Under the pieces are notes generated by a model. The model did not search any database. It was not told the DNA's origin and saw only the letters and a program-made list of their open reading frames with translations. A stretch of 64,000 nucleotides of DNA from Nitrosopumilaceae archaeon (lineage in GTDB: Archaea; Thermoproteota; Nitrososphaeria; Nitrososphaerales; Nitrosopumilaceae): positions 1,408,001 through 1,472,000 of the forward strand of contig OZ242274.1 in the NCBI GenBank assembly GCA_965207375.1, read 5' to 3'. Made by a program: the position numbers and the translations under genes. Positions within the stretch are counted from its first letter, which is position 1; every line of letters begins with the position of its first letter. Positions 36,136 to 52,175 of this stretch are shown piece by piece.

Positions 36136-36577
36136 CGCCTTACCTAATGTCGTACAAATTCCTTGATCAAGGATTTTCTAAAATAACCAAAAATCGAGTA
36201 AATTTAACATCTAGCCTTAATTTTTTGGTACAAACTCAGGTCGTAAATTTTTCAGCCACAAAATTTTCACATATGTTCAAAAACTACATAGAATCAGAGG
36301 TGACCTGAATATTTGCTTGTTTGCATTGGTACTTGGAGAGTGGAATCTTGTAGAACTTGGATTACTGCCATCATCTAATTTACTTGATCGTGGCACATAA
36401 GATTACGTATATTCCCGCCGTGTACTTAAATAATTGATTAAATCAATATGGATATGGAAAATGAAAAACCAAAAGAAATCAAAAAAGCACCAGAACGACC
36501 GTTTTATGGTAGTCAGGAACAACCCACACGTACCGCTCCAGATGGTTCATCTAGCCAAGGACCCATCAAAGGTAAAC

Positions 36578-37111
36578 CTAGACCTTCAAGTAGTTAAAAT
36601 TATTTCTTAATTTTTCAAGTGTGTTTTTAATTTCTTTTTTCAATCTTACTTCGTTGTTGTCCATCCAGTCATAGTATGGATAGGATTTTCTCGGAACCGG
36701 ATCAGTGGGATTTTCCATCTGTATCTCCTGCGTTATTTTTAAGAATTTATTATGCATTTTTATTCTTTTGAATATATCTTGCACTGGCTGTTGTAATTTT
36801 GGCTCTAGACGATTTATTGCTCCTGAAAATATCAAACTATCGTAAACATCATGATTAAAATCCCTGTTGATGAAATATGCCTCTTTATCATTCTGATTCG
36901 AGTCCTTTATTTTAACCATATATGCATCATCTAGATGTTTTTGACCATCTAGACTTTCTAGCGTATCTTTTAACTCCAAGTATAGATTTTTTGATGCCTG
37001 TTTTCTGTCCTTATGTCGGTCAAAGAAATATTTGCCCGCTGAAATACCTATGGCCACAATAGTTACAAGAGATGCGAAAGATTCTATGGTCATATAATCA
37101 AAAAACTCCAT
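36578..37111 (-). CDS. N-terminally anchored hypothetical protein
   Basis: 177 aa, one TM; lies between inverted copies of the 78-bp repeat. Confidence 0.65.
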   Translation of the reverse strand: MEFFDYMTIESFASLVTIVAIGISAGKYFFDRHKDRKQASKNLYLELKDTLESLDGQKHLDDAYMVKIKDSNQNDKEAYFINRDFNHDVYDSLIFSGAINRLEPKLQQPVQDIFKRIKMHNKFLKITQEIQMENPTDPVPRKSYPYYDWMDNNEVRLKKEIKNTLEKLRNNFNYLKV

Positions 37112-37350
37112 TCAAAAATTTCAATTTCCAGTAATATAAAAAAATTCGCAGAATTGTAATCGTACGTACATACTCAAGTCGCCTCTGATTCTATGATATA
37201 GTTTTTGAACATATGTGAAAATTTTGTGCCTGAAAAATTTACGACCAGAGTTTGTACGGTTCTAGATAATAGCATAACCCAAATTTTAGTGGAGTGGACC
37301 CCTTGTTTTAGTACCACTTTTTACACTAATTTCCGAATTGATTTTAACCG

Positions 37351-37611
37351 TCATTTATTTGTCTCCCACCGTGATGCAAATTCAGCAAATGTGATATATC
37401 TCCGAGACGAGTGAATTCTTGTCGTGTTATAATTCTCAAAGGCATCAGATAGGACAGGTTTTGCATCCTGGTACTTTTCAAAATAATGTGGTCAGATGTA
37501 CACTTTTTTGAATGTCTTGTGAAATGACTCTACATGACCGTTTTGTTCGAGTATTCTTCCAGATGAATTCATGCTTGCCGATTACAAGTATAGATACTGC
37601 CTTTCTAAAAA
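37351..37611 (-). pseudogene. rve (IS3/IS481-like) transposase 3' remnant, copy 1
   Basis: HEFIWKNT.EQNGHVESFH...RIHSS; direct repeat of 39612-39872. Confidence 0.75.
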
Positions 37612-37769
37612 GTTGTGCAGATTATGATATATTGTATCTGGATTGCTTGAAATGACGATAACTCAAAATAAACCTATTCGTACTGGTTACAGGATAAACA
37701 AAAACGAATACAGTGTGATAACACACTTGATGGGGATTGAACGATACGCAAAATCTTAGTCACATATGT

Positions 37770-38381
37770 CTAGAAATCAGCAGTCCTGATATTTTTGATT
37801 TGTAACGGAGTTACCTTCTGATGATTTCGAATTTCTTCAAAATCTCCATCAAAAGTCCAAAATTCGTCACATTCCATCTCTTTTGCTAACAACACGTGTA
37901 ATGCGTCATATGATGCAAGAGATTTGTATGATGTGGTAGGTATTCTGCCCTTATTACATTTCTTGCAATAATCATGCGTTTTGATTGTCCCCCTTACCGA
38001 ATCCAAAATTAATTGTGCATCTGTTAGCAGTTGATTCATGTCAATGCTTTTCTTGACCTGAAAGATTATTTTGTTTTCCATGCGTAATAACTCCTCTAGT
38101 ATTTTTTTATACATAGACGAGGATTCTTTAATGACATGGTCTACTCTGTTAGTGACATCTGGAATTGCCAACAGTTTGGATTTGTCCTGCCCTACTCTAT
38201 TTTTAAGTACAGCCATGATCTCGATCAGGACAAGAGCAGAAACTACACCCTCTATATGGCCCTCTTTTATTTTGTCAAATACCTGATCCGCTAGTTTTGT
38301 TTGTGTTCGATTGCTTTCAAACCCAGTAATTTTTGCAAGAAGTATATTGGAATCCAAATATACTCTGATCAATCTAATCAC
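37770..38381 (-). CDS. PIN-domain (VapC-like) toxin
   Basis: VYLDSNIL, LIEI, YDALHV, TFDGDF. Confidence 0.85.
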   Translation of the reverse strand: MIRLIRVYLDSNILLAKITGFESNRTQTKLADQVFDKIKEGHIEGVVSALVLIEIMAVLKNRVGQDKSKLLAIPDVTNRVDHVIKESSSMYKKILEELLRMENKIIFQVKKSIDMNQLLTDAQLILDSVRGTIKTHDYCKKCNKGRIPTTSYKSLASYDALHVLLAKEMECDEFWTFDGDFEEIRNHQKVTPLQIKNIRTADF

Positions 38382-39465
38382 GTCTTATGTCTCGTATAAT
38401 TTCCACAGGGTCAAACTCATCACACTTGATTCTACTGGCTATGATCCCCGTGAGTCTGTTAAAAGAATTGGGATCATATTCAGGTAAATTATCTAGACCG
38501 ATCGATCTGGCTAGATGCATGCGAAATTCTTGATCTTCAGAGCATTTGTCATCTAGACCATACACGTTCTGCTTAATACCCAAATTAGTTTCAATAATTT
38601 GCATCATGGTAATAATAGAAGCGTCAAGTATTTTGATCTTGTCTGAAAACATACTCTTCCAATCTGGGATTTTATCCAAATAGTATTCATCATGCTCCAG
38701 AATTCTTGCCCCATATGCAAAAGTGTTCCATATATCCTTAGACAGGATTTTTAAACTTTTCAACACTATCGTATATTTGGGTTCTTTTTTATTTTTGACT
38801 TCAAACGTTTTTTCTACAGTTTGACAGAATTTGAGAAACAGAATCTTGAAATCAGTAAATATTGGATTGGGTGGAATTGTAAGTATGGATCGTTTCAACT
38901 CTGAAAGAAGGATGGGCTCTGTAAAGATGTTACAACTAGTAGTGTTGTTGATATGATGATCACAATACGACTCAAAATGGGACAAAAAATCGGTCTTGTA
39001 ACTGGGGTAAAACAAGATCGGTGACTCTGCATACACTTCTTTTACAAGTAGCAAGTTTGAAAATTTGGAAGTGTTATTCACTATATCGGATATTGTCTTG
39101 CGTATTTTCTCAAAATCACATTCTAAATGATCTATGAACCTCCTGTCTTGTAAATTTGGATTGTATTTGTACAGTTCATATCTATCGTCCGTATTCAAAA
39201 GAATTTGTTTATTTTTCATCATGCTGATTGTCTGATCTATGACTTCGGAATATGGTCCTTCCAAAAACCAGTAAAATGGAATAGAATTTTTTACAGAATC
39301 GTTTTCTGGAAGTGATTTGTTCAACTTGAACAATATCTTTTGAATCGTCTTCTTTGGAAGTTTGTGCCGGGATTTTTTGATCTTAAAATTATGAAAAATA
39401 AGCCTTATCATTTCTTCAATGATTGGGATCTCAGGTTTTTGCAACATCATAGATGTCCACACCAA
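38374..39465 (-). CDS. SocA/Panacea-like wHTH protein, putative antitoxin
   Basis: KKTIQKILF, PFYWFLEGPYSE; overlaps PIN start. Confidence 0.6.
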   Translation of the reverse strand: MVWTSMMLQKPEIPIIEEMIRLIFHNFKIKKSRHKLPKKTIQKILFKLNKSLPENDSVKNSIPFYWFLEGPYSEVIDQTISMMKNKQILLNTDDRYELYKYNPNLQDRRFIDHLECDFEKIRKTISDIVNNTSKFSNLLLVKEVYAESPILFYPSYKTDFLSHFESYCDHHINNTTSCNIFTEPILLSELKRSILTIPPNPIFTDFKILFLKFCQTVEKTFEVKNKKEPKYTIVLKSLKILSKDIWNTFAYGARILEHDEYYLDKIPDWKSMFSDKIKILDASIITMMQIIETNLGIKQNVYGLDDKCSEDQEFRMHLARSIGLDNLPEYDPNSFNRLTGIIASRIKCDEFDPVEIIRDIRRD

Positions 39466-39611
39466 GCTCCTTCAATACAAATACTTTGCATATATGACAT
39501 GTACAATTTCAGGTACTTAAAACCAAGGCTGGGAATTAATAATTGTTGTTAGATTGGAGTGGACATCATCAAATAGGATCGTTTTTTGCATGATAATACA
39601 TACAGTCGGAC

Positions 39612-39872
39612 TCATTTATTTGTCTCCCACCGTGATGCAAATTCAGCAAATGTGATATATCTCAGAGACGAGTGAATTCTTGTCGTGTTATAATCCTCAA
39701 AGACTGCAGTCGGGACAGGTTTTGCACCCTGGTACATTTCAAAATCATGTGGTCAGACACCTTCTTTTTTGGGTGTCTTGTGAAATGATTCCACACGATC
39801 GTTTTGTTCGAGTATTCTTCCAGATGAATTCATGCTTGTCGATTCCAAGTATAGATACTGCCTTTCTAAAAA
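39612..39872 (-). pseudogene. rve transposase 3' remnant, copy 2
   Basis: Diverged direct repeat of 37351-37611. Confidence 0.75.
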
Positions 39873-39876
39873 TATT

Positions 39877-39958
39877 GTACTTGTTCACCTCACGCCTAAT
39901 TTTTCAATCATTATGTCACCGTTTAGGGACAAATCAATTCCACTATGTGAACAAGTAC
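39877..39958. mobile_element. 82-bp MITE with IS66-like ends
   Basis: TIR GTACTTGTTCAC (same as 14214); TSD AAAATATT; empty paralogous site near 40389. Confidence 0.85.
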
Positions 39959-39977
39959 AAAATATTGAAAAATGGAT

Positions 39978-40319
39978 TTAATCTCCTAATATACTCCTGG
40001 GATTTTCCCACATGTCTTTTACGTCATCATCTAGACCACCATCTGTATCGTCTGTGTCATCAAGTGTTGTTTCTGTCGGTTTTTCACTCGTTTGTGTATT
40101 CATATTAAGAATCCTCATCTCTTCTAACAGCCAAGGTTTTAGTTTGTCCTCAGAATCAAGGATTAGTTTCATCTCATCTAGAAATGATACCATTCTACAT
40201 TTTTCTCTATATCTTGCCTTTGCTCGCTGTTTGGCAGTCATTGTTCCAGGTGATGACAACAATCGCTTTAGTTTCTTGATTGGCATGGTATCATAATAGT
40301 AAATAGTATAAAAGGTCAA
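39978..40319 (-). CDS. Hypothetical protein, tandem paralog 1 (likely start MPIKKL)
   Basis: Near-identical termini to 40408..40752. Confidence 0.6.
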   Translation of the reverse strand: MTFYTIYYYDTMPIKKLKRLLSSPGTMTAKQRAKARYREKCRMVSFLDEMKLILDSEDKLKPWLLEEMRILNMNTQTSEKPTETTLDDTDDTDGGLDDDVKDMWENPRSILGD

Positions 40320-40407
40320 AATTTGATTCGTGTCTAAAAATGCATAGATAAATCAACCATTTTGGAATGAAATGATGGTTATTCTAAAAAAATATTGAAA
40401 AATGGAT

Positions 40408-40752
40408 TTACTCTCCTAATACACTACTAGGATTTTCCCACATGTCTTTTACGTCATCATCTAGACCGTCATCAGAGTCGTCTGTATAATCTGGTGTTGG
40501 TTCTACAAGTTTTGTATTTTTTTGCATGCACATATCCCGTTTATCCATCTCCTCTTTTAGGAATTGTTTTAGTTTTGTATCCTCAGAATCCCGTATTAGT
40601 TGCATGTCATCTAATTCTCTTTTTATTCTACATTTCTGTCTATGTCTAGTTATTTTTTTTTGATGAACAGTCATTGTTCCAGGTGATGACAACAATCGCT
40701 TTAGTTTCTTGATTGGCATGGCATCATAATAGTAAATAGTATAAAAGGTCAA
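40408..40752 (-). CDS. Hypothetical protein, tandem paralog 2
   Basis: Basic N-terminus, acidic C-terminus GLDDDVKDMWENP. Confidence 0.6.
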   Translation of the reverse strand: MTFYTIYYYDAMPIKKLKRLLSSPGTMTVHQKKITRHRQKCRIKRELDDMQLIRDSEDTKLKQFLKEEMDKRDMCMQKNTKLVEPTPDYTDDSDDGLDDDVKDMWENPSSVLGE

Positions 40753-41895
40753 AATTTGATTCTACACTGCCAATTTACACATACGTTGTATTGTAATCAT
40801 CATGTATTGTTTATGTGTAGAATGGACCATTAATGCTTGCAAGTGTCAGATTTTCAACATTTTAGTTAACTGATTTTATAAATGTAAATTCACATGATAA
40901 GTATATCTGAGATGCATCTAGAACTGTAAATATGGGGATCATAAACCTGACTTTTTCACTAATTTTTTCCTAAGAATTAAATACTAATTGTTTGAAGACT
41001 TGTTATGACAGAAACATCATATTCGGAAGATTTTGGTGAATATCAAAAAGAAGAAGATGAGATTTCCTGTACATACAATTCCGCAGAAGAAGCAGAAGAC
41101 GCCGTATTGAAAGAAATACTTGATGAATAAAACAGAGTGAGAATATGGCAGACATCTCATTGTCCAAACTTTTTAAACAACAGATTCATGACGACTGAAT
41201 GAGTAAGATAAATAGAATAAGAATAACTCGTTCTTTCAAACGGGTCGAGCGTATGATTTTGGATCTAGAAAGGCATGGTTTTGATATCGAACAAATGAAT
41301 ATCAGAATAAAGATAATATACAACATACGAGTTATTTTCAAAGTCATGCCACAACAAGACAAAATAATAGTTAAAAAAATCTTATTTCAATGATCGGTTT
41401 AATGATAATCTACATAAACAACTGATTTGATTTCTTTTTGCAAATATGATTAAGTGATTTCGAGATGTAGTATGAAACCCTATCTTCTTCAGCCCATCAT
41501 TCACACATTGTTTTAACTCCTCTTCATCGGAATCAAGTATGGTTCTAAGGACTATAGTAATTAGTTGTATTTTCTGATATGGGTCATCAACTTCATCTAC
41601 CAGTGCTTGCAATGCCTGAGAGATGATTCGTAATTAGAAAACCACGCCTAACAAGAGCAAAAATCTGTGCCCAGATCTAATTACGAATCACGTCTCTGTA
41701 TTTCCAATAACTGTTCATCTGTCATATCATTAGTATATCTAAATAATATAAAAGGAGTAACGTAGATATTTTTCTATGAATAATTTGTAAAAACTTTCTA
41801 TCGTCTATTGTAGTTGTTTGTATCTTGTTGTTTGCTTTTTGTCACAAGGAATTGAATTTTTATTTGTGAATTTAATTTTTTGACAAGATTATTGT

Positions 41896-42143
41896 GGTAT
41901 CATCATATTGATACCTTTACCCTATTATGGTAGTTTAGTATCATTATATTGATACTTTTTTTTGTATATTACTGACTAAACGGGCTAACTTGTTTTGTGC
42001 AGTATAGTAGTGAAAACAAAAAACCAGGAATAAAATTCCAAAACAAATAGCAAATGCATGCGAAAAAACGTACACCCCCTAGATTTTCAACTACCCTACC
42101 AAAATCAACAAATTCAAAAATAAAGTCACGTCATATTGATACC
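41896..42143. promoter_or_regulatory. Repeated palindromic sites RGTATC-N8-GATACY
   Basis: 41896-41915, 41937-41956, half-site CATATTGATACC at 42132-42143. Confidence 0.55.
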
Positions 42144-42205
42144 TTTTTCACCACAAAAATCTTCTGAAATTTTTCAAATCAATTTTAAAAATTACACTAA
42201 ACCAC

Positions 42206-42268
42206 ATGGGCGATGATGAGACCACACATCTGAATCAGTATGATTGATTCCATTCATTCTGAGCCCAT
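42206..42268 (+). ncRNA. Box C/D guide RNA unit 1
   Basis: ATGGGC-g-ATGATGA-gaccacacat-CTGA-atcagt-ATGATTGA-ttccattcatt-CTGA-GCCCAT. Confidence 0.85.
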
Positions 42269-42344
42269 CATAACCTACTTTCACAGAAACATCTTCTGCT
42301 ATTAAATTTGTCCTTTCAGATTTGTAAAAATTCCACTAAACAAC

Positions 42345-42409
42345 ATGGGCTATGATGAAGAACAGTCGTTCTGAAACCAGATGATTCACGATTTGCAATC
42401 TGAGCCCAT
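42345..42409 (+). ncRNA. Box C/D guide RNA unit 2
   Basis: ATGGGC-t-ATGATGA-agaacagtcgtt-CTGA-aaccag-ATGATTC-acgatttgcaat-CTGA-GCCCAT. Confidence 0.85.
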
Positions 42410-42484
42410 CACACCCTTTTCACAAAGAATCATTTTCTCTATTAAATCTGCCGAACAAAACTTGTAAAAATTTCACTAAACAAC

Positions 42485-42555
42485 ATGGGCTATGATGAAG
42501 TCAATCAGCTGAACAATCTACAAATGTAGAGACCCGCGGCTGAATCTGAGCCCAT
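42485..42555 (+). ncRNA. Box C/D guide RNA unit 3
   Basis: ATGATGA-agtcaatcag-CTGA...ATGTAGA-gacccgcggctgaat-CTGA inside ATGGGC/GCCCAT. Confidence 0.85.
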
Positions 42556-42631
42556 CATAACTTGTCTTCACAGTAACATTTTCTATTATTAAATTTGTCC
42601 TTTTAGACTTGTAAAAATTTCACTAAACCAC

Positions 42632-42696
42632 ATGGGCGATGATGAGACCACACAAACTGACTTCTGTATGAAGAATCATCCCTGGTCTGAGCCCAT
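42632..42696 (+). ncRNA. Box C/D guide RNA unit 4
   Basis: ATGATGA-gaccacacaaa-CTGA-cttctgt-ATGAAGA-atcatccctggt-CTGA inside ATGGGC/GCCCAT. Confidence 0.85.
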
Positions 42697-42772
42697 CATA
42701 ACCTCATTTTCACAGAACTATTTCTGCTATAAACTTTCCATAATGAAAAACAATTACAATATTTAATGTAAA

Positions 42773-42863
42773 GTGAGCGGCGATGATGAACGCGTGCAAA
42801 TCATATCCGATGAGAGACGGAAATGTTGATGCCTGACTCGCCGAGAGTCCCTGAGCCGCACAC
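42773..42863 (+). ncRNA. Box C/D RNA unit 5 (long guides, different stem)
   Basis: GCGGC-g-ATGATGA-17nt-CCGA...ATGTTGA-21nt-CTGA-GCCGC. Confidence 0.8.
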
Positions 42864-42919
42864 TTCTCTCAACTTTCATTTCTTTCTTTTTAAACTTTGT
42901 AAAAATTACACTAAACCAC

Positions 42920-42984
42920 ATGGGCAATGATGAGACCACACAAACTGACTTCTGTATGAAGAATCATCCCTGGTCTGAGCCCAT
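42920..42984 (+). ncRNA. Box C/D guide RNA unit 6 (core identical to unit 4)
   Basis: Same boxes and guides as 42632-42696. Confidence 0.85.
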
Positions 42985-43109
42985 CATAACTTGTCTTCAC
43001 AGTAACATTTTCTATATCTAAACCTGCCGCAACCACAGGTACAATTTTCGTTCTTTGCAAGAACAAGCCCAGTGAGGGTTAATTACAAGTCAAACATCGC
43101 AAGCCGATT

Positions 43110-43646
43110 TTGGCTAAATTTACAAAACTTACGCTCATGACTACAAAACGAAACCAAAAAATCACCATTGATGGTAAGGAATACCTAAAACGAGACGTAT
43201 GTAGATACGTCAAGGATTTCTCTGGAGAGATAGATGATCTCATCCTAACACCATGTGGTACAGGTCAGTCAGCCATAAAAAACTACGACGATGAAGTCGT
43301 GGCAACTGTTGACACAGACTGCATCCGAACTTTACTCGGTGATACCATACCGATTGAAGGTTTGGAGAGTATTGATGACAGACGTCAAAGGAAGGAATTT
43401 ACAAAAACGACACAAGTTGCTACAGGGAATTGGCACTCATGCATAGCAGATGAGAAAGGTAATCTACCTGATTGTGACGTGTGTCAATCATATATTCCAG
43501 AAAGCACATGGATAAGCCTACATAACATGTTGGCCGAATCTCTGGAAGATTCTATGATTGTTACCTTGCGCGACGAGTATGTCAAAGGACTAGATGATAG
43601 TCTACGATTCATTATAGAGTCCGAAGCTGACCGACGAGGATTGTAA
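43110..43646 (+). CDS. Hypothetical protein (likely start 43138); N-terminus homologous to 48646..49905
   Basis: KITIDGKEY...VC versus KINVDGKQY...VC. Confidence 0.7.
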   Translation: MAKFTKLTLMTTKRNQKITIDGKEYLKRDVCRYVKDFSGEIDDLILTPCGTGQSAIKNYDDEVVATVDTDCIRTLLGDTIPIEGLESIDDRRQRKEFTKTTQVATGNWHSCIADEKGNLPDCDVCQSYIPESTWISLHNMLAESLEDSMIVTLRDEYVKGLDDSLRFIIESEADRRGL

Positions 43647-43720
43647 AATCCTCCCCCTTTTTTATTTTCAATAATGATTATTTCTTTTTCAAATCAATTT
43701 TCAAAATTTTACTAAACCAT

Positions 43721-43784
43721 ATGGGTGATGATGAACCGGCAGTCGATTTGATCTCGATGATGAAAAGCCAGAGTCTGAGCCCAT
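43721..43784 (+). ncRNA. Box C/D guide RNA unit 7
   Basis: ATGGGT-g-ATGATGA-accggcagtcgat-TTGA-tctcg-ATGATGA-aaagccagagt-CTGA-GCCCAT; same flanks as units 1-4 and 6. Confidence 0.85.
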
Positions 43785-43872
43785 CATAACCTCATTTACA
43801 GAAACATTTTCTGCTATTAAATTTGTCCCTTTATTTTTCAAGAGACTGGTCAAAGCCGGAAATATTTTGCTC

Positions 43873-43962
43873 ATGAAAAAAGAAAAACAGGAAAAAACAC
43901 CATATTTTCCAAGAATAAAACGAGAATTCGAAGATGACCCAGAAGACCGGGAAATCTGGTGA
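43873..43962 (+). CDS. 29-aa peptide MKKEKQ...DREIW
   Basis: Manual translation; followed by a T-run. Confidence 0.35.
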   Translation: MKKEKQEKTPYFPRIKREFEDDPEDREIW

Positions 43963-43974
43963 ATCACCCCCTTT

Positions 43975-44049
43975 TTTGTGACCTGACAAGTCTTTTCAAA
44001 TCTCACAGTATCCCGTATGGGGCTGACAGGCAGGTGAGTGTGGAAAAGA
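43975..44049 (+). ncRNA. Unrecognised structured RNA motif, copy A
   Basis: GTGACCTGACAA-TCTTTTC-AAAT-CTCAC...CTGACAGGCAG-GTGAG-TGTG-GAAAAGA. Confidence 0.75.
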
Positions 44050-44064
44050 TACAACGTGATTCAA

Positions 44065-44229
44065 ATGTACAAAAACAAAGAACTCGTAGCATCTGAGCTT
44101 GTTGAATCTAACATTCTCAGATCAGACTCTGGTTTCCTCCAGGGAATAATCACCCATGAGGAACTCACAGAGATTGACAAGTTGATGGATGAAGCATTCA
44201 TCGACTTTGACATTTTGTGTCGGGAATAA
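44065..44229 (+). CDS. Small acidic protein
   Basis: 54 aa, directly after motif copy A. Confidence 0.55.
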   Translation: MYKNKELVASELVESNILRSDSGFLQGIITHEELTEIDKLMDEAFIDFDILCRE

Positions 44230-44250
44230 TCCGATACACAAACCCATTTT

Positions 44251-44324
44251 TTTGTGACCTGACAAACTTTTCAAACCGGCATTATCTGATGTATCAGACT
44301 GACAGGCAGGCCGGTGTGGAAAAG
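44251..44324 (+). ncRNA. Structured RNA motif, copy B
   Basis: Helix CCGGC/GCCGG replaces CTCAC/GTGAG. Confidence 0.75.
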
Positions 44325-44333
44325 CAAGCAACC

Positions 44334-44744
44334 ATGAAAAAAAGACAAAAAATCAAAATCCCCATCATGGATGCCCTAAAAAAGACAAAAGAACGACTAT
44401 TCAAAATACAAAACGCTGTATTTTGGGGTATCGTTGTAGTCGGTACAGGAATGAGCATAACCGATTCAATGGTCGAAAAACCTATTTTTGTTGACGGCAT
44501 AGCCTTTATTATTGCTGGCTTCGTAGGTTTGATAATGTCTTGGATAACTGCTGATGTTGCAAAAAGTCTTACCGAAAAAATCGAAAAAGTCGGTCAAGAA
44601 ACCAAAGAGGAAATTCGCAAGGTAGGTAAAGAAACCAAAGAGGAAATTCGCAAGGTAGGTACCGCAGTTGAAAAACACATGGAAGTATCTATAAAACAAA
44701 CTGAGATCCTGGAGAAGATCTTGCACAAACTTCCAGACAAGTAG
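44334..44744 (+). CDS. Two-TM plus coiled-coil protein, paralog 1
   Basis: Two TMs; 11-aa repeats EIRKVGKETKE. Confidence 0.8.
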   Translation: MKKRQKIKIPIMDALKKTKERLFKIQNAVFWGIVVVGTGMSITDSMVEKPIFVDGIAFIIAGFVGLIMSWITADVAKSLTEKIEKVGQETKEEIRKVGKETKEEIRKVGTAVEKHMEVSIKQTEILEKILHKLPDK

Positions 44745-44766
44745 GGCATTCCAAAATCCCGTATTT

Positions 44767-44853
44767 TTTGTGACCTGACAAACTTTTCAAATCCGTTAAT
44801 ATCGAGTATAGCGCAAGCTGTATTTGGCTGACAGGCAGAACGGTGTGGAAAAG
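44767..44853 (+). ncRNA. Structured RNA motif, copy C
   Basis: CCGTT/AACGG helix; GCAA-capped hairpin with G-U pairs. Confidence 0.75.
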
Positions 44854-45108
44854 CAAGCAACCATGAAAAAGATTCAAAGAATCCGAAACTCCATCATGGA
44901 TGCCCTAAAAGAAGCAAAAGACAGACTGTTCAGAAAACAAAACACACTATTTTGGGCCATCGTTATAACTGGTCTAGGAATGAGCATCGTGGGTTTAATT
45001 TTCGATGTGCGATTCCTTGTTGACCAGCTAAGCGAAATATGATTCAGATTCTTTGTCACAGTAGATTTTGGCCTATTTTGCCAACATTTCGCTTATGTTT
45101 GACTTGTA

Positions 45109-46269
45109 TCAATCTCTAATTGCTTCAGCTATTTCTTTACATACAAATATTTTACTTTTGTATTTGTTACTTATCTCATCTAGTATTTGTACGTCAATTA
45201 ATCTCTGTACAGCATTTTTTGCCGATGGGTAAGTTATGCCTAAATAATCTGCGGCTTTTGGAATTGTTATGAATGGATTTCCTAACAAATAATCTATCAA
45301 CAAGACCGCACTTCCACTAACACGTTGTTTTTTCAAAGTTTGTTTGTATTTTTTTTGAAGAGTTAACAACCTTTGAATATTTTCAATTGCCTCATCTGCC
45401 GTTACCGTTATCGCATGTAAGAAAAACATCAACCATTCTTTCCATTTACTTTGTTGACTAATGGCCAACAATCCTGCATAATACCTGTCCAAGTTTTTTT
45501 CAAAATATGCACTCAAATACAATAAGGGTTGAGAAAGCAAACCTCTTTCTGTTAAAAGTAAAGGAATCAACACTCTTCCAATTCTTCCATTTCCATCTAG
45601 AAAAGGATGTATAGCTTCAAATTGATAGTGTAGAATTGCACATTGTAGAACTACTGAAAGATTTTCTGGTGGTTTTTGTAGAAATTCTTCTACTTGTTCT
45701 AATAATGATACAACATATTCAGGTGGTGGGGGTGTATATACGGAATTTTCAAGGGTATCACCATATCTGACTATCCAATTTTGAACTGTTCTAAACGATC
45801 CTGGATTTTTATCTCCACCTCTGACCCCCATCATCAATATTTTGTGAGATTCTCTTATCATTTCTAAATCTATTTTTCTTCCATCTTTGATTATCTCCTT
45901 GATTTTTTCTTGTAACACTTTCACATAGTTTCTTACCTCTTTCAACCGTAATCTTTCTTCGTCTTCTTGACGAAAACTTCCTACTACCTCATATTGTAAT
46001 AGATCAGTCATTGATGCTAATGTTCCCTCGATTTTGGAACTTAATACGGCTTCCCGAGTAAGATAGGGTCTAATCAACACATGTGGATTTGGAAGTAAAT
46101 CACCTCTTCCTTTTAATTCCGCCAATTTTCGTTCTGCATGAACAAGAGACATTACTAAATCATCGTCATATTGTATTTCTGGTGGTATTTTATTAGGAAT
46201 AAAGGTCTCATATCCTTTCGTATTTTTTATTATTTTGCCGTTAGGATTGGTAAAGTCACTTTTATTCAT
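45109..46269 (-). CDS. Fic-family protein
   Basis: SSKIEG and HPFLDGNGRIGR motifs; C-terminal HTH. Confidence 0.95.
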   Translation of the reverse strand: MNKSDFTNPNGKIIKNTKGYETFIPNKIPPEIQYDDDLVMSLVHAERKLAELKGRGDLLPNPHVLIRPYLTREAVLSSKIEGTLASMTDLLQYEVVGSFRQEDEERLRLKEVRNYVKVLQEKIKEIIKDGRKIDLEMIRESHKILMMGVRGGDKNPGSFRTVQNWIVRYGDTLENSVYTPPPPEYVVSLLEQVEEFLQKPPENLSVVLQCAILHYQFEAIHPFLDGNGRIGRVLIPLLLTERGLLSQPLLYLSAYFEKNLDRYYAGLLAISQQSKWKEWLMFFLHAITVTADEAIENIQRLLTLQKKYKQTLKKQRVSGSAVLLIDYLLGNPFITIPKAADYLGITYPSAKNAVQRLIDVQILDEISNKYKSKIFVCKEIAEAIRD

Positions 46270-46469
46270 TCACTGCACCGTTTTCTGGTCATTATAGTTT
46301 CTTTAATGAAATATTTACAAATTAAACATATTGCCATTTTTCTTTAATCTAAGATGTTTTACTATTAAAACTTGTTGGCTAAACAGCTAAGCGAAATGTG
46401 GGCAAAATAGGCCAAAATCTACCCCAAAAATGCAAACAGATCAATAGAGGCGGCTCCAGATGATTTTCA

Positions 46470-47606
46470 GTGTCCAAACAAAAAACCAAACAGAGCCGTG
46501 AACTATTAAACAATCCACGATTATATCAAGATGCCGCATCTGGTGCCAAAAACATGCTTGCATGTACTACTTTGTCAGTCAAGGGCAATACGATATATGG
46601 AGTTGATGATCTCAGTACCGGAATGTTGAGGGCTACCATTATGGATTCCTCTGTAGGAGGATGTGCAAATGCGGTAAAACAAAAAAACAGCAATACGCCA
46701 TCAGACAGATGGTATGCATCTGCAATCAAGGGGATATCAGAGGAAACAGTACAGGACGTTTTCCAATTACAGATAGCAAGACAGGTTAAAATTCTCAAAA
46801 AAATGGGAAAGATTCCAAAGAAGGGGCTTACAGTTGCAATGGACCTACACCTCATATGCCGTTATGACAGGACACATGGGGAGGAGTTGACCCGTTCCAA
46901 ATACAAAAACGGCACGACATACTTTGAGCGTTACATGACGGTTCACTGTGTGGATGATACAATGAGAGTCGTTCTAGCTGCAATACATCTCAAAATGCTT
47001 GATTCCGTGCCTAAATCGGTGAATTTTCTGCTCAAAACACTGTCGGATTTGGGGGTAAAAGTTCGTCTGGCATTATGTGATCGTGAGTTTTTCTCAGTGG
47101 ATACAATGCAAATGCTGATTCAAAACGACGTATCCTTTTTGATACCTTGCAGAAATACACCAAATGTAAAATCTGCACTAGACGAGTATAGTCGTAAAAA
47201 ACGTGATGTAACATCAGAGTGCACCCTACAAAACGACTGTCATTCTGTACCGTATACAATGATAATAGAAAGAAGAAAAGGGTCAAAGGATACTGATGTT
47301 GCCGAGGAAAAATACATTGGCTTTGCAACTAACTGTAATACTGTAGACGTTACAGAATATGCAAGTAGGTGGGGGATAGAATCAGGATACGGCAAGATAG
47401 AGGAATGCAGGGCCAAGACACGAATCAAGGATAATGTATCAAGAATGCTGTGTTTTTATTATTCACTGATACTGTACAATGAGTGGATAATTATCAGGGC
47501 TATTCTTTGTGACGATACAGCAAGTCAGAGTATTATGACCATGCTAGTTTTCAAAGTACAAATGGATTTTGAGTTGATGCGTCAGTTCAAGCCGCCGCCA
47601 GGGTAG
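46470..47606 (+). CDS. ISH3-family transposase
   Basis: AMDLH, CDREFF, YASRWGIESGY. Confidence 0.9.
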   Translation: MSKQKTKQSRELLNNPRLYQDAASGAKNMLACTTLSVKGNTIYGVDDLSTGMLRATIMDSSVGGCANAVKQKNSNTPSDRWYASAIKGISEETVQDVFQLQIARQVKILKKMGKIPKKGLTVAMDLHLICRYDRTHGEELTRSKYKNGTTYFERYMTVHCVDDTMRVVLAAIHLKMLDSVPKSVNFLLKTLSDLGVKVRLALCDREFFSVDTMQMLIQNDVSFLIPCRNTPNVKSALDEYSRKKRDVTSECTLQNDCHSVPYTMIIERRKGSKDTDVAEEKYIGFATNCNTVDVTEYASRWGIESGYGKIEECRAKTRIKDNVSRMLCFYYSLILYNEWIIIRAILCDDTASQSIMTMLVFKVQMDFELMRQFKPPPG

Positions 47607-47893
47607 GATTTGGGCTACATTTCGCTTAGCTGTTGACGGCATAGCCTTTATTATTGCTGGTGTCGTAGGACTGATAATGTCTTGGATGACTACCGATGTT
47701 GCAAAAAACCTCACCGATGAGATCCGCAAGGTTGGTCAAGAAACCAAAGAAACCAAAGAGGAAATCCGCAAAGTAGGTACCACAGTCGAAAAACACATGG
47801 AAGTAACTGTGAAACAGACAGAAAAACTAACCGAGATCCTGGAGAAGATCTTGCACAAACTTCCAGACAAGTAGGGCATCAAATCCCGTATTT

Positions 47894-47980
47894 TTTGTGA
47901 CCTGACAAACTTTTCAAATCCGTTAATATCAAGTATAGCGTAAGCTGTACCCGGCTGACAGGCAGAACGGTGTGGAAAAG
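47894..47980 (+). ncRNA. Structured RNA motif, copy D
   Basis: As copy C, GTAA loop. Confidence 0.75.
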
Positions 47981-47989
47981 CAAACAACC

Positions 47990-48379
47990 ATGAAAAAGAG
48001 TCAAAAAATCAGAAACTCCGTCATGGATGCCCTAAAAAAGACAAAAGAACGACTATTCAAAATACAAAACGCTGTATTTTGGGGTATCGTTGTAGTCGGT
48101 ACAGGAATGAGCATAACCGATTCAATGGTCGAAAAACCTATTTTTGTTGACGGCATAGCCTTTATTATTGCTGGCTTCGTAGGTTTGATAATGTCTTGGA
48201 TAACTGCCGATGTTGCAAAAAGTCTTACCGAAAAAATCGAAAAAGTCGGTCAAGAAACCAAAGAGGAAATCCGCAAAGTAGGTACCACAGTCGAAAAACA
48301 CATGGAAGTAACTGTGAAACAGACAGAAAAACTAACCGAGATCCTGGAGAAGATCTTGCACAAACTTCCAGACAAGTAG
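47990..48379 (+). CDS. Two-TM coiled-coil paralog 3
   Basis: Near-identical to 44334..44744. Confidence 0.8.
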   Translation: MKKSQKIRNSVMDALKKTKERLFKIQNAVFWGIVVVGTGMSITDSMVEKPIFVDGIAFIIAGFVGLIMSWITADVAKSLTEKIEKVGQETKEEIRKVGTTVEKHMEVTVKQTEKLTEILEKILHKLPDK

Positions 48380-48400
48380 GGCATTCCAAATCCCGTATTT

Positions 48401-48487
48401 TTTGTGACCTGACAAACTTTTCAAATCCGTTAATATCGAGTATAGCGTAAGCTGTATTTGGCTGACAGGCAGAACGGTGTGGAAAAG
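48401..48487 (+). ncRNA. Structured RNA motif, copy E
   Basis: As copy C; not directly followed by an ATG. Confidence 0.75.
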
Positions 48488-48645
48488 AAATCCGCAATAG
48501 CGGTGCATGAAATTCTACATGTATTATTTGGACGCAAGTTCAATCCCAGATTTTTTGACAAATAATATTCGGATGTGGGCATAGAATTACCACATCGCAA
48601 CGGCGACAGTCGTAAAGAACTCAAACAACAAAGGAGGTTGATAAA

Positions 48646-49905
48646 ATGAGTGTAACAAACAAACCAACAAAAATCAACGTTGATGGAAAACAATATCCGT
48701 TAGCGTTTGTATGTAAAAAAATCAGAACAACCCTAAAACTCTCATCTGCCGTGTATAACCGCGGTAACACATTTTTGTGTGATGGAGATATGGTGGCTGT
48801 TCTGTCTGGAAATCACATAACATCTGTGATAACCGGCAAGAAACTAGACCTTTCACAAAGCCATGTGAAAAAAACACATGAACTAATTGATAACTGCAAA
48901 AAATCAATTGGTGATTTCACAGACTCTGCGGACTTTTATCAAAGAGAACCTGAAGGCTTTGAACCAATCAGCGGCAAAGCATTTGCAATTGGTTGGAAAA
49001 AAGACGGCTTTTACGAGTCGTTACATTTTGCAGATGCAGACGGCACAATGTTAAATGCTATACTAGACAAAGACACAATCGACACTCTAGTAAAACCATA
49101 CAACAGACCTGTAATAGAGCGTAGACATGTAAACTACACACCACGCTCAGAAGAGGTAGCGTTTGCACTAGCAGACATGCAAGGTTCTGACATACTAGTC
49201 CGTACGGAAAACCAATTCCATGGAAAAGTTACAGAACCCATATTTGTCGAGGAGCAACCATCAGAACAATACCAGTTTCTTTTATCTGATGATGGTCAAA
49301 TCTTGACACAAAAGTACACACCGATAAAGGAATGTGACTGCATATCTGTATCATCAATGAGTGATGAGTTCAGAGAAGCATTTGCTGATATTATCGACGA
49401 ATCACAAATGGGTGCAAAAACAGACTATACAACAGAGGCCCAAATATGTGAAGAAATAATAGACATAGAAGATGTGGTACCTTCACACTTTGTAGCAGAC
49501 AAAACAGCAAGAGATGTCAAAAGACAAAGCCAGAGTATACACACAGGTGAGAGAACACACAAGCCAAGAAAACATGACAATAGGACATACAATCCTGCTG
49601 ACATTTTGTCTCATGCCAAAACACTAGACAGCAAATCTTTGATTGTTATCTACAAACCAATGATATCACAATATCATGACCACGGTGAGACTGAACGACA
49701 CTGCAACATCTGTGTCTTTGAAGATGTATCAGAAAATCTTGAAGATACAATGGTGTCTCTTCGTGGCATGGAAGCATCTCAACTAACTGTATTTATCAAA
49801 ACAGTTGAAACCGCAATGGACCAACTACAGGTACCAACACACAAGGAGCCTGTGGAATTATCCATCGCAAAAAGCCTGCTAAAAGCAAAGTCTTCACATT
49901 GCTAA
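48646..49905 (+). CDS. Hypothetical protein
   Basis: 419 aa; AGGAGGT upstream. Confidence 0.75.
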   Translation: MSVTNKPTKINVDGKQYPLAFVCKKIRTTLKLSSAVYNRGNTFLCDGDMVAVLSGNHITSVITGKKLDLSQSHVKKTHELIDNCKKSIGDFTDSADFYQREPEGFEPISGKAFAIGWKKDGFYESLHFADADGTMLNAILDKDTIDTLVKPYNRPVIERRHVNYTPRSEEVAFALADMQGSDILVRTENQFHGKVTEPIFVEEQPSEQYQFLLSDDGQILTQKYTPIKECDCISVSSMSDEFREAFADIIDESQMGAKTDYTTEAQICEEIIDIEDVVPSHFVADKTARDVKRQSQSIHTGERTHKPRKHDNRTYNPADILSHAKTLDSKSLIVIYKPMISQYHDHGETERHCNICVFEDVSENLEDTMVSLRGMEASQLTVFIKTVETAMDQLQVPTHKEPVELSIAKSLLKAKSSHC

Positions 49906-50267
49906 GCGCCCAAAAGGTAGCATCGATTTTAGATGCCCTTGTACTTGCCGGAAACGTTGAAACATCACAGCAATTTTTCAAATGCTGTGGTCCCAACTGG
50001 CAAAAGGTTTACAGTCTTTTGTCCCCGGAGGCACAAAAATCACTCAATCCAGATGTATCACATCAAATAAAGATAGACCCAAAAATTGCAGTAAAGGTGT
50101 TCAATGAACTAGCATCTGCACAGCAATATGATACTATCATCATGATGTGCAATTCTAGGATTGGAAACATTGGACGTATCATGAACTTTTGTTCACCTGA
50201 TGCTGTTCGTGTAATCAGCCGTGTCAGACAGACATGGCAAAAAAATGTACAGATTACCTGTACATAG
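49899..50267 (+). CDS. Hypothetical protein
   Basis: 122 aa, overlapping previous stop. Confidence 0.6.
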   Translation: MLSAQKVASILDALVLAGNVETSQQFFKCCGPNWQKVYSLLSPEAQKSLNPDVSHQIKIDPKIAVKVFNELASAQQYDTIIMMCNSRIGNIGRIMNFCSPDAVRVISRVRQTWQKNVQITCT

Positions 50268-50273
50268 GGAAAA

Positions 50274-50396
50274 TCCCACTGATGAGTTTGCCATAGCGAC
50301 ACCGCATGAAGCAAACGCTGGAGTATTCCAGTTGACTGACTCCATCCCGCAGATACGGGGGTTAGTCGAAACATCCTAGTACCAGGATGTCTGGGA
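50274..50396 (+). ncRNA. Type I hammerhead ribozyme with multibranched stem II
   Basis: TCCCA-CTGATGA-G...C-GAAA-CATCCT-agtacc-AGGATG-TC-TGGGA; predicted cut after C50391. Confidence 0.8.
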
Positions 50397-50511
50397 AAAA
50401 GAAACACAAATCCTTCCATCCCAGACCTGATGATACCTATACCATCTAATGGTATCTGTAATATCAGGTCAATGAGGGATTTACACAACACAAACAACGG
50501 AGGTTGATATA

Positions 50512-50763
50512 ATGAGTTATACAATCACAAAATACCAAGGAAAATTTGAAACAGCAGAAAACATACCAAAGACAGGCAGACTAGTTACTGCAGAATCTTT
50601 GTTCAAAGAAAAGTCCGCACTCAGAAATGTTGCAGCAGTATTCATACAGCAACAAGAAACAGTATATCTTGTCTCACTACGTGAGATGGTACCAGAAGAC
50701 TCGAAAGTCATCGTAGATGATCAACAAAACATTTGTGCCATACCAGCAGTTGCCGGGGGGTAA
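50512..50763 (+). CDS. Small protein with ubiquitin/SAMP-like C-terminus
   Basis: 83 aa ending IPAVAGG; GGAGG upstream. Confidence 0.65.
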   Translation: MSYTITKYQGKFETAENIPKTGRLVTAESLFKEKSALRNVAAVFIQQQETVYLVSLREMVPEDSKVIVDDQQNICAIPAVAGG

Positions 50764-50813
50764 AACCCCTTGGAAACTCGCAGAGTATCCAATACTGATT
50801 CAAAAGGCAGACA

Positions 50814-50948
50814 ATGCTTTCAGCAACCGGCGCAATAACACGCATCGATTCTGGACGATTTTCTGTAGGTTCGGGAGTAATAGTTGACATCCATGGGTGC
50901 AACTGTCCCGGATACACAAAATGTAGAATCTGCTCACACTTGTTGTGA
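50814..50948 (+). CDS. Tiny SWIM-type Zn-finger peptide
   Basis: Manual translation ...GCNCPGYTKCRICSHLL. Confidence 0.4.
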   Translation: MLSATGAITRIDSGRFSVGSGVIVDIHGCNCPGYTKCRICSHLL

Positions 50949-51002
50949 GAAATCTCTTGACACAATACGACACCAACATAATCTAGGAGGAACAACAAGA
51001 AA

Positions 51003-51209
51003 ATGTCCAAAAAAGAACTAGAAAAAATTGTAGAGTTGTACCGCAACTATAACATCGAAAAGATGCACAAACAAAAAATCATAAAGAGTTACACAAATAC
51101 TATCATGGCCATCCTTGAGGTGTGCTCAGAAGAGACCATATCCAAAATCAATGACTGTCTTGAGCAGGAAGAAAAAATACAACCATCACCAATTGGTATT
51201 GTATCATGA
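51003..51209 (+). CDS. Hypothetical protein
   Basis: 68 aa; AGGAGG upstream. Confidence 0.55.
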   Translation: MSKKELEKIVELYRNYNIEKMHKQKIIKSYTNTIMAILEVCSEETISKINDCLEQEEKIQPSPIGIVS

Positions 51210-51781
51210 GTGTAGTATCAACATACAGAAAAGACAATCAAATTTTGGAAATATTTGTAGATGAAGATCCTACAAGTCCAAGAGAATGGGATAATCTAGG
51301 TACAATTATCGCTTATCATCCAGACTATATCCTTGGAGATAAACAAATGGATCTACAGACTGCACAGAATGAATGTAAAAAACATATCAAAACTGCATAT
51401 GTTGCATTGCCATTATACATGCTAGAACATAGCGGTATATGGTTGTCTACTGAAACATTTGTTTGTGACCTCCAGGGCTGGGATACTAGTGCTGTCGGCA
51501 TGATATACTGTACAAAATCAGAGGTAAAGAAAATGCTGCAAGTGGACACCCTAAAATCATCAGACAAAAAAAGAGTAGAACAAATCCTAAAAGAGGAAGT
51601 CGAGGAGTGTGGAGAATATCTAAACGGTGATGTATATGGATACTCTCTAAGTACGGTATCTAAATGCAACCAAGGAATGGAACATCTACATCTTGTCGAC
51701 TCTTGTGGTGGATACTATGGTCAAGAGGGCATAGACTCTATCCTTGAACAAAACGGCGCACAAGATTGGGAGAAGATATAA
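51206..51781 (+). CDS. Mobile-element hypothetical protein
   Basis: DPTSPREWDNLG, LPLYMLEHSG, DSCGGYYG resemble phage/ICE hypotheticals. Confidence 0.7.
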   Translation: MSVVSTYRKDNQILEIFVDEDPTSPREWDNLGTIIAYHPDYILGDKQMDLQTAQNECKKHIKTAYVALPLYMLEHSGIWLSTETFVCDLQGWDTSAVGMIYCTKSEVKKMLQVDTLKSSDKKRVEQILKEEVEECGEYLNGDVYGYSLSTVSKCNQGMEHLHLVDSCGGYYGQEGIDSILEQNGAQDWEKI

Positions 51782-51962
51782 TCATGAGCACCGAATCTCG
51801 GCTCCTTTCACATTCCAAAAAGGAATTGGTAAATCTGCTCATCATGGCAAGTGCCAGGATTTTTACACTACAAAATGAAGTGAATGGGTACCAAACCAAT
51901 TGTAACTGCAAACCAAACACCGGTGACAGATTTGCAGACATTGATAGGGCGTGGAATAAACC

Positions 51963-52175
51963 ATGATTGACCAATATACAATGTATGTAGATCCAAACTA
52001 TTCGTATCTTAAAGTACCTAGAAAGGAACTAATCAAGATGGATGTACTTTCAAAAACCAGCAGTAGGTCATTCAGACGCGGGGCGTGGGTTCTACTAAGA
52101 GAGGGTGCTGACATGAACAGATTCATGAAGCAAAAAGGTCAGGTAGAAATCATAAAAGAGTTCACACTAGTGTGA
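51963..52175 (+). CDS. Hypothetical protein
   Basis: 70 aa in a packed operon. Confidence 0.55.
   Translation: MIDQYTMYVDPNYSYLKVPRKELIKMDVLSKTSSRSFRRGAWVLLREGADMNRFMKQKGQVEIIKEFTLV

Follow-up and report, generated by a model that had tools for sequence, protein, structure and literature searches.

A compact, pseudoknotted RNA motif is repeated five times between the genes of a mobile element within a 64,000-nucleotide (nt) stretch of the genome of an ammonia-oxidising Nitrosopumilaceae archaeon (assembly GCA_965207375.1, contig OZ242274.1, positions 1,408,001 to 1,472,000; hereafter the window). The RNA is 80-100 nt long and combines five covarying pairings (helices P1, P2, P3, P4 and a pseudoknot) with ~35 invariant unpaired or junction nucleotides. 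Judged from sequence comparison, it is a previously undescribed structured-RNA family, well supported as a structure. The motif is tied to a run of T residues and to the start of an RNA unit, whichever kind of RNA that unit encodes. We tentatively consider it to be a module for RNA processing, a role that is weighed below against several alternatives.

Five copies of the motif in the window

All five copies (A to E, Table 1) lie on the + strand. The first-pass annotation of this DNA had reported five copies of an unrecognised covarying motif, and this observation is confirmed as real: GTGACCTGACAA occurs exactly at 43978, 44254, 44770, 47897 and 48404, although the start coordinates given earlier fall 3 nt too early, within the T-run. 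The pattern GTGACCTGACAA-N30-80-CTGACAGGCAG has five forward and no reverse matches in the whole 4.3-Mb genome, and none in a control read backwards. A covariance model search of the same genome found no further copy beyond one match at E=0.63. Two matches with two mismatches near a tRNA gene (35687 and 36300) were rejected as motifs.

The helices described earlier were located in the copies by script, namely the outer helix, (G/A)(T)CTTTTC/GAAAAG, and a second helix in three compensated versions, CTCAC/GTGAG, CCGGC/GCCGG and CCGTT/AACGG. The variable hairpin was likewise recovered, with the loops GUAU, UGUA, GCAA, GUAA and GUAA in copies A to E and several G-U pairs in copies C and E. The short gap to a start codon also holds for four copies, the distance from GAAAAG to ATG being 16, 9, 9 and 9 nt in copies A to D; for copy E the first real open reading frame (ORF) begins only at 48646. 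Single-sequence folds reproduce the P1-P2-P3 layout with z-scores of -1.2 to -3.8, which are unremarkable by themselves. Copies C, D and E lie within a tandem duplication of a gene for a small membrane protein and are 95-98% identical over 103 nt, so that the window alone holds three independent versions of the motif (A, B and C/D/E), not five.

The claim that the motif matches no known family also stood. Rfam searches, including two at E<=10 over 381 nt (copies A and B) and over 36000-52000, returned no family matching the motif. A search of largely open-access literature gave no description of it, and the terms ribozyme, non-coding and sRNA are absent from the available passages of PMC6563490.

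Fold and covariation

Relatives of the motif from Nitrosopumilaceae genomes were aligned and compared with 500 shuffles and with partner strands slid against each other. In the class I subset (29 distinct sequences, aligned with MAFFT), 87.3% of the cells pair, compared with 62.6% after shuffling (0/500 shuffles reach the observed value) and at most 53.3% after sliding; both sides change in 15 of the 17 pairs. In the full covariation set of 76 distinct sequences the corresponding values are 90.6%, 68.0% (0/500) and at most 46.2%. Chance is excluded because the pairing among relatives far exceeds both controls. RNAalifold independently predicts P1-P3, whose alignment was fitted to the covariance model; the E-values of the covariance models used here are rough.

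Among the 76 sequences, P1 is paired in 81.0% of the cells and both sides have changed in six of its seven pairs. Its C-A cells are numerous, are confined to two fixed positions and look like conserved features. The pairing reaches 95.5% in P2 and 90.2% in P3. A fourth helix, missed by the first-pass annotation and found here by covariation, consists of three base pairs (bp) formed by the letters that flank the junction strand. This P4 helix appears as CUG...CAG, CCG...CGG, UCG...CGA, CGG...CCG and GGG...CCC, and is paired in 99.1% of the cells (one pair is UA in 47 sequences, CG in 16 and GC in five; another is CG in 60 and UA in six).

The proposed CCUG/CAGG pseudoknot proved to be real as well; it covaries between classes and joins the 5' tail to the P4 loop. 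Pairing amounts to 95.8%, and two pairs change on both sides (CG 60/UA 11; UA 52/AU 11/GU 7), while 11 sequences have gained a G-C pair through insertions in both strands. The tail/loop combinations are CCUG/CAGG (51), CUGAG/CUCAG (13) and CCGAG/CUCGG (4), plus wobble variants. P4 and the pseudoknot are absent from the covariance model behind the alignment, and their counts are therefore not circular. An extension of the pseudoknot by an A-U pair past the C-G pair was rejected, as the A is constant and its partner varies (U, G or C). The UCAG/CUGA tail/loop pair in two copies of locus L089 depends on a shifted register and was not counted.

The predicted fold thus reads, from 5' to 3', as an oligo-U run, UGA, a tail strand of 4-5 nt (PK5', the 5' strand of the pseudoknot), a 4-nt linker N-C-A-W and P1, followed by an internal loop of AAA(Y) opposite UGUG, P2 and the three-way junction of P2, P3 and P4. 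P3 is variable and often capped by a GNRA loop, whereas P4 is only 3 bp long, and its loop consists of an A plus the 4-5 nt that pair with the 5' tail. Since the junction strand is the loop of the small P4 hairpin, the three helices P2, P3 and P4 would meet in a junction whose P4 loop captures the 5' tail. Only four nucleotides link the tail to P1, so the stack of P4 and the pseudoknot would have to fold back along P2-P1, beside the AAA/UGUG loop; this stack is probably packed alongside P2-P1. Several further elements were considered by eye and rejected or left as possibilities: a triplex of the U-run with the purine-rich 3' strand of P1, a kink-turn (K-turn) in the AAA/UGUG loop, a bulge-helix-bulge site and a UGUNR turn like that of the signal recognition particle Alu domain.

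The gene strand as the folding strand

P3, which is free to vary, offers the best neutral indicator; its cells, read on the gene strand, comprise 44 G-U but only three A-C combinations. This excess of G-U identifies the sense strand as the folding strand. In addition, among 50 folded distinct P3 hairpins, GNRA sequences cap 18 of the 38 tetraloops, compared with ~3% expected at random. The G-U bias and the GNRA loops together favour an RNA of the gene strand over single-stranded DNA. The suggestion of an Frpo-like single-stranded DNA promoter, which needs a fold of the template strand, is contradicted by both features, and such a template-strand hairpin is excluded on these sequence grounds.

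Two classes with a patchy distribution

The relatives fall into two classes. In class I the 5' tail is UGA-CCUG and the junction strand GA-CAGG; in class II they are UGA-CUGAG and GA-CUCAG, and in class IIb UGA-CCGAG and GA-CUCGG. Class II was first seen as weaker matches (20-39 bits) to the covariance model (R1), on the same strand as the strong ones and interleaved with them; under a model built from class II, members of that class reach 75-80 bits. All copies in the window are class I; a model search with filters off found no class II copy there.

Among 201 genomes of the same family searched by pattern, seven hold the element, the genome of the window included. With R1, the motif was detected in 10 of 151 family genomes, representing 4 of 27 genera. 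A class-level genome sample gave 8 of 80 genomes of this family and 0 of 70 from 11 other families, non-detection in the sampled genomes not being equal to absence. When one genome per prokaryote species was scanned, 34 stretches were obtained; 20 of them belong to Nitrosopumilus, Nitrosopumilaceae or Thaumarchaeota (one labelled 'bacterium'), and all 20 match the covariance model. The 14 bacterial stretches score 16-22 bits and were rejected as chance pattern matches, as were the viral-contig matches (23 + 1 stretches), many of which lie within GACCTGACAGGCGC-type tandem coding repeats. On 38 bacterial and viral loci the best R1 score was 22.2 bits, compared with at least 45 bits for true class I members. 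A metagenome scan of 26 loci contributed three true matches in two loci, plus two matches near 19-20 bits. The element of the window holds five copies, and up to 14 matches occur in one genome. The patchy occurrence among genomes fits cargo of a mobile element.

A T-run upstream and any RNA gene downstream

About 90% of the copies lie directly 3' of a T-run, with 0-3 nt between the run and the motif. Across 71 distinct upstream sequences the T-run spans positions -8 to -2 relative to UGAC, and a G-poor C/A tract lies ahead of it at -18 to -9. No positioned TATA or transcription factor B recognition element (BRE) signal was found at -23 to -36 in these sequences (information <=0.13 bit). For the copies of the window, the upstream ORF has its stop codon 9-19 nt 5' of the T-run.

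The downstream side is far more diverse. ORFs follow at 9-16 nt in the window and at up to 140-300 nt for class II. In genome G016 the motif is followed by a C/D-box small RNA (sRNA), a spacer, a type I hammerhead and an ORF. In loci L103 (1501-1667, +) and L104 (1427-1593, -) a class IIb copy lies 1-2 nt before tRNA-Asp(GTC), in an element that also encodes an ArdC-like gene; the tRNA-like sequence of locus L112 is degenerate and received no ARAGORN call. This diversity (ORF, C/D sRNA, tRNA) indicates that the motif is not tied to translation or to the function of the gene; it goes instead with the T-run and with the beginning of an RNA unit.

Copy E is followed by a further conserved leader (48488-48645), composed of a hairpin CCGC-AAUA-GCGG, after which the sequence reads GCAUGAAAUUCUACAUGU... 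(GCAUGAAAUUCUACAUGUAUUAUUUGG). The same leader is common to the copies of loci L009 and L011 that precede homologues of the 419-amino-acid (aa) gene, which shows the leaders to be modular. Many class I copies in L056, L073, L012, L070 and L074 have, a few nt further on, a second small hairpin (loop UUGC(G)A) that leads into an A-rich stretch and the start codon.

Hammerheads and C/D-box sRNAs nearby

The first-pass annotation had placed a hammerhead in the same gene run. Hammerheads do accompany the motif in related elements of other genomes, but the window itself has none by Rfam, pattern and script scans, and its UGAUGA and CUGA boxes belong to units resembling C/D-box sRNAs. The sole hammerhead match in the window (16142) has implausibly long loops and was rejected. 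The related loci contain ten plausible type I hammerheads (loci L114 (=L024) 1796-1844(-), L013, L056, L059, L073, L110 and L116), in which stem I contains the start codon and cleavage (GUC| or CUC|) is predicted exactly 1 nt before AUG (nine) or GUG (one). One of them reaches the Rfam gathering score (35.4 vs 34), and the other nine come from the pattern scan only. Six of the ten have a C/D-box sRNA ~40-50 nt upstream. Cutting by these hammerheads would yield leaderless mRNAs with a 5'-OH.

The C/D-like units of the window (Table 1) have the layout AUGGGC-GAUGAUGA-guide-CUGA ... C'-guide-CUGA-GCCCAU, and a conserved spacer that ends in CTATTAAATTTGTCC...TTGTAAAAATT comes after every unit. The units remain below the Rfam thresholds (best sR5, 30.2 vs 40 bits), and their guides differ between units. 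When the guides were compared with the whole genome, no target was found in the motif and no clear target elsewhere. A paralogous C/D-like pair is located near G000:C1:139.9-140.1 kb.

Genes and element around the motif

Paralogues of the 136-aa protein encoded after copy B follow copies C and D. The genes for these small membrane proteins contain an in-frame 33-nt repeat (KETKEEIRKVG; 44596-44661, 47747-47779 and 48252-48284), whose copy number varies among the paralogues. The paralogue after copy C is split by a composite insert resembling an insertion sequence (IS; 45043-47631); its frame resumes near 47632 and stops at 47874. Within the insert, a Fic/DOC gene (45109-46269, -) lies between inverted repeats 45061-45095/46388-46422 (35 nt, 97%), and a DDE transposase (46470-47606, +) between repeats 46382-46408/47608-47634. 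A duplication of the target TTGAC marks the two edges of the insert.

Most surrounding genes belong to no family, and homologues of several of them are found in the related loci. Proteins with an ArdC N-domain, a staphylococcal-nuclease fold, an OB-fold and a PIN domain point to a plasmid-like integrated element. No integrase family was found among the 30 ORFs scanned with Pfam, and no copy of the tRNA region that could serve as an att site was found downstream. A 207-aa protein of the element occurs in 5 of 151 genomes by the query used; two of these five carry no motif, and seven motif-bearing genomes have no such protein.

The first 36 kb of the window are bracketed by a tRNA gene (36064-36135) and a partial direct copy of it (G000:C1:1407341-1407468, ~660 nt before the window). 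This region encodes a TrwB/HerA-like ATPase (6579-9455), an actin-like protein of the ParM/MreB fold (30549-31427) and two DDE transposases, and is probably a separate integrated element adjoining the motif-bearing one.

Table 1 Motif copies and neighbouring features of the window. PK5', 5' strand of the pseudoknot; J, joining strand between two helices; scores refer to covariance model R1.
Feature	Position	Strand	Remarks
C/D-box-sRNA-like units, ~7 in tandem	42207-42990, 43722-43781	+	period ~140 nt
Copy A	43972..44048	+	87.4 bits
Copy A, 5' part	U-run 43972-77; UGA 43979-81; PK5' 43982-85	+	PK5' CCUG
Copy A, P1 and joining strands	P1 43990-97/44043-48; J1/2 43998-44001; J2/1 44039-42	+	J1/2 AAAU; J2/1 UGUG
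Copy A, P2 and P3	P2 44002-06/44034-38; P3 44011-22	+	P2 CUCAC/GUGAG; J2/3 AGUA
Copy A, P4	44023-25/44031-33; loop 44026-30	+	CUG/CAG; loop A+CAGG
ORF after copy A, 54 aa	44065..44229	+	only a sub-threshold SHOCT_2 match
Copy B	44247..44324	+	92.1 bits
Copy B, 5' part	U-run 44247-53; UGA 44255-57; PK5' 44258-61	+	
Copy B, P1 and joining strands	P1 44266-72/44319-24; J1/2 44273-75; J2/1 44315-18	+	J1/2 AAA
Copy B, P2 and P3	P2 44276-80/44310-14; J2/3 44281-84; P3 44285-98	+	P2 CCGGC/GCCGG; J2/3 AUUA
Copy B, P4	44299-301/44307-09; loop 44302-06	+	
ORF after copy B, 136 aa	44334..44744	+	predicted membrane protein; KETKEEIRKVG repeats; no Pfam family
Copy C	44764..44853	+	84.0 bits; layout as in copies A and B
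Copy C, P2 and P3	P2 44793-97/44839-43; P3 44802-27	+	P2 CCGUU/AACGG; long P3 with GCAA loop and G-U pairs
Paralogue after copy C, 5' part	44863..45042	+	interrupted by the IS-like insert
Copy D	47891..47980	+	81.4 bits; near-duplicate of copy C
Copy D, P3	47929-54	+	GUAA loop; two A-C mismatches at the base
Paralogue after copy D, 129 aa from its ATG	47990..48379	+	
Copy E	48398..48487	+	83.1 bits; near-duplicate of copy C
419-aa gene after the copy E leader	48646	+	led by a Shine-Dalgarno sequence
OB-fold protein	57395-57916		family search
Nuclease	58201-58815		family search
ArdC N-domain	59212-60042		family search
C/D-box-sRNA-like unit	61202-61256	+	

Proposed function and alternative explanations

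We propose, at somewhat less than even probability, that the motif serves as an RNA processing or 'punctuation' module at the boundary of the U-tract, acting by self-cleavage or by blocking a nuclease. Transcription would run through the T-run, and the motif would then separate the downstream RNA from the upstream RNA at the U-tract/UGAC boundary. A compact 5' end locked by the pseudoknot would remain, and the downstream RNA would be finished and kept. This proposal is made because the motif has a complex fold with a locked tail, is located after the U-tract, is indifferent to what follows, occurs in many copies and keeps company with hammerheads. Self-cleavage near the 5' end of the motif appears to be the single most likely way, while being doubtful in itself. 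A passive block, second in order and rather unlikely, would halt a 5'-3' nuclease or a termination factor working at U-tracts, such as aCPSF1/FttA. Recognition by a host endonuclease, the third way, seems improbable. Read-through of the T-run, cleavage, nuclease block and three-dimensional packing are all points that we infer. In a bolder version of this scheme, mobile elements of Nitrosopumilaceae would employ the motif, along with hammerheads that generate leaderless mRNAs, to divide a single long transcript into mRNAs, guide RNAs and tRNAs; we hold this to be possible but less probable than the processing role as such.

Several points weigh against a processing role. Many conserved motifs found beside ribozymes do not cleave, and position -1 before UGAC is variable (G 32, U 28, C 9, A 2), with no signature of a cleavage site. 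The relatives share ancestry and several rows come from one array, so that the cell counts exceed the number of independent events. T-runs are archaeal terminators, and if most polymerases stop there, the element would rarely be transcribed from upstream. The sense strand of long ORFs in this genome contains 400 T6+ runs against 2702 A6+ runs, a ratio of 0.15 where base composition predicts ~0.20; the avoidance is only modest, and the T-runs may be strong or weak terminators. Finally, before a tRNA the 5' end is made by RNase P anyway, and a role at the 5' end is not obviously needed.

The tRNA case fits a role at the level of transcription better, and antitermination is therefore kept as the main rival. 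As a regulatory leader resembling HK022 put or lambda nut, the motif, alone or with a factor of the element or the host, would modify the elongating polymerase so as to let it pass the T-runs between the units. Such a leader, which we judge unlikely, could serve any type of downstream gene (mRNA, C/D sRNA or tRNA). The motif occurs once per expression unit in arrays punctuated by T-runs, and the ~35 invariant nucleotides could form a binding surface. However, the motif lies 3' of the adjacent T-run and could act only on the next one, which leaves the tight adjacency unexplained, while put and nut sites are not placed before every unit and no protein strictly co-occurs with the motif, as the pattern of the 207-aa protein shows. 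A riboswitch, in which the junction and pseudoknot form a ligand pocket controlling the downstream gene, would show the usual pattern of invariant junction strands, variable helices and a pseudoknot, and the second hairpin and start codon after some copies could be an expression platform. It is nevertheless improbable, as the motif precedes a tRNA and C/D sRNAs, reaches up to 14 matches per genome before unrelated and mostly unknown genes, has no association with the genes of a single pathway, matches no Rfam aptamer, and shows neither a constant distance from the start codon nor a conserved pairing alternative that involves the T-run or the start region. The idea of a translational leader that recruits ribosomes to genes without a Shine-Dalgarno sequence finds some support in copies B-D, which end 9 nt before an ATG without such a sequence. 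Among the explanations weighed it is the least probable: several downstream genes carry their own GGAGG, relatives precede tRNA-Asp and C/D sRNAs, and the start distance ranges from 9 to >140 nt.

Two further alternatives place the function in the DNA. The T-run, often TA-TTTTTT, might be the TATA box of a promoter, with the invariant YC-AAA, ~20-23 nt further on, as the transcription start and the invariant strands as sites of protein binding. No other positioned promoter signal occurs upstream, the AAA is found 19-22 nt past the last T in class I and class II alike, and the motif occupies the place where the promoter of a tRNA or sRNA would be expected. An RNA started there would, however, be missing the tail and the P1 5' strand, although covariation links these to the P4 loop and the 3' strand of P1; moreover, the spacing between the invariant strands varies with P3 length (10-27 nt). 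We regard a promoter as a poor prospect, of the same low order as a riboswitch. An element acting as single-stranded DNA in a transferred or rolling-circle strand, such as a priming site, an Frpo-like promoter or an attC-like recombination site, is less probable again. The neighbours resemble a plasmid leading region (ArdC N-domain, OB-fold protein, nuclease), and same-direction cassettes separated by folded repeats recall attC. However, the strand that folds is the sense strand and not the one that an Frpo-like promoter would need, and the motif shows enriched GNRA loops, a pseudoknot and a three-way junction; no integrase family was detected in the 30 ORFs. Sites of the attC type have conserved paired core sites (R''/R' and L''/L') and a variable centre; in the motif the conserved letters are unpaired and the helices variable, the opposite arrangement.

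The constraint on the motif, with five covarying pairings, two classes and ~35 invariant nucleotides, is at the level of ribozymes and riboswitches, and its genomic grammar is sharply defined: a T-run, the motif, then any kind of RNA gene. The self-cleaving ribozymes known so far make up only about a dozen classes, and archaea and their mobile elements have yielded very few complex structured RNAs. Should the motif cleave, it would add a new class of ribozymes; should it block a nuclease or termination factor, it would reveal how a mobile element overrides archaeal oligo-U termination, the control of which is poorly understood. Together with the hammerheads 1 nt before start codons in related elements, the motif suggests gene expression by the processing of long transcripts, and our literature search found no description of such RNA processing for Thaumarchaeota.

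Comparison with known systems

The earlier interpretation thus holds in part: the covarying, pseudoknotted element without an Rfam family stands, whereas the in-window hammerhead, the translational leader, the Frpo-like promoter and the likeness to hatchet ribozymes are not supported. According to PMC6561176, the hatchet has a 5' P1 hairpin, a 3-nt conserved linker and a linear P2-L2-P3-L3-P4 arm without a three-way junction; its consensus there has no tail-to-loop pseudoknot and cleavage occurs at the 5' edge. The motif differs from the hatchet (RF02678) in its unpaired 5' tail, a P1 closed by the 3' end, the P2/P3/P4 three-way junction and unrelated conserved sequences, and no hatchet match was obtained at E<=10 in the 381-nt Rfam search. 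Both RNAs are ~80 nt long, with conserved nucleotides in linkers and loops and with helices probably side by side, and if the motif cleaves, the likely site would by analogy be the 5' edge. Like the motif, the hatchet occurs in several copies in mobile DNA near other ribozymes.

The type I hammerhead (RF00163) shares with the motif a three-way junction and the same family of elements; the two are found in the same unit in genome G016, and both start expression units. Unlike the hammerhead, the motif has no CUGANGA/GAAA core in pattern, script and Rfam scans, and the hammerheads lie 1 nt before the start codon whereas the motif follows a T-run at a variable distance from the start. Membership of the C/D-box sRNAs or K-turns was rejected by eye: one YGA triplet is located at each end of the pseudoknot helix, where the two cannot come opposite one another, the second triplet has its G paired in P4, and the Rfam C/D matches lie elsewhere, in the sRNA-like units (Table 1).

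In exoribonuclease-resistant RNAs (xrRNAs) of flaviviruses and plant viruses, the RNA to be preserved begins with a compact fold, a three-way junction or a pseudoknot, whose 5' end a pseudoknot locks. The motif likewise holds its 5' end by a pseudoknot in a junction fold, a likeness of layout and not of membership. In the motif the 5' tail pairs with a hairpin loop rather than a junction strand, no second pseudoknot between a loop and the 3' tail is seen, the RNA is DNA-encoded in an archaeal host, and no Rfam xrRNA family matches. HK022 put and lambda nut are cis-acting nascent RNAs for terminator read-through, present in one or two copies per genome as two simple stem-loops upstream of the terminators that they suppress, whereas a copy of the motif follows nearly every T-run. 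The intercistronic RNase III sites of phage T7 are repeated structured RNAs between same-direction genes, at which the polycistronic transcript is cut. The motif is similarly repeated and covarying between same-direction genes of a mobile genome. The T7 sites are simple irregular hairpins cut by a host enzyme specific for double strands; the motif is a pseudoknotted junction, for which we know of no processing enzyme.

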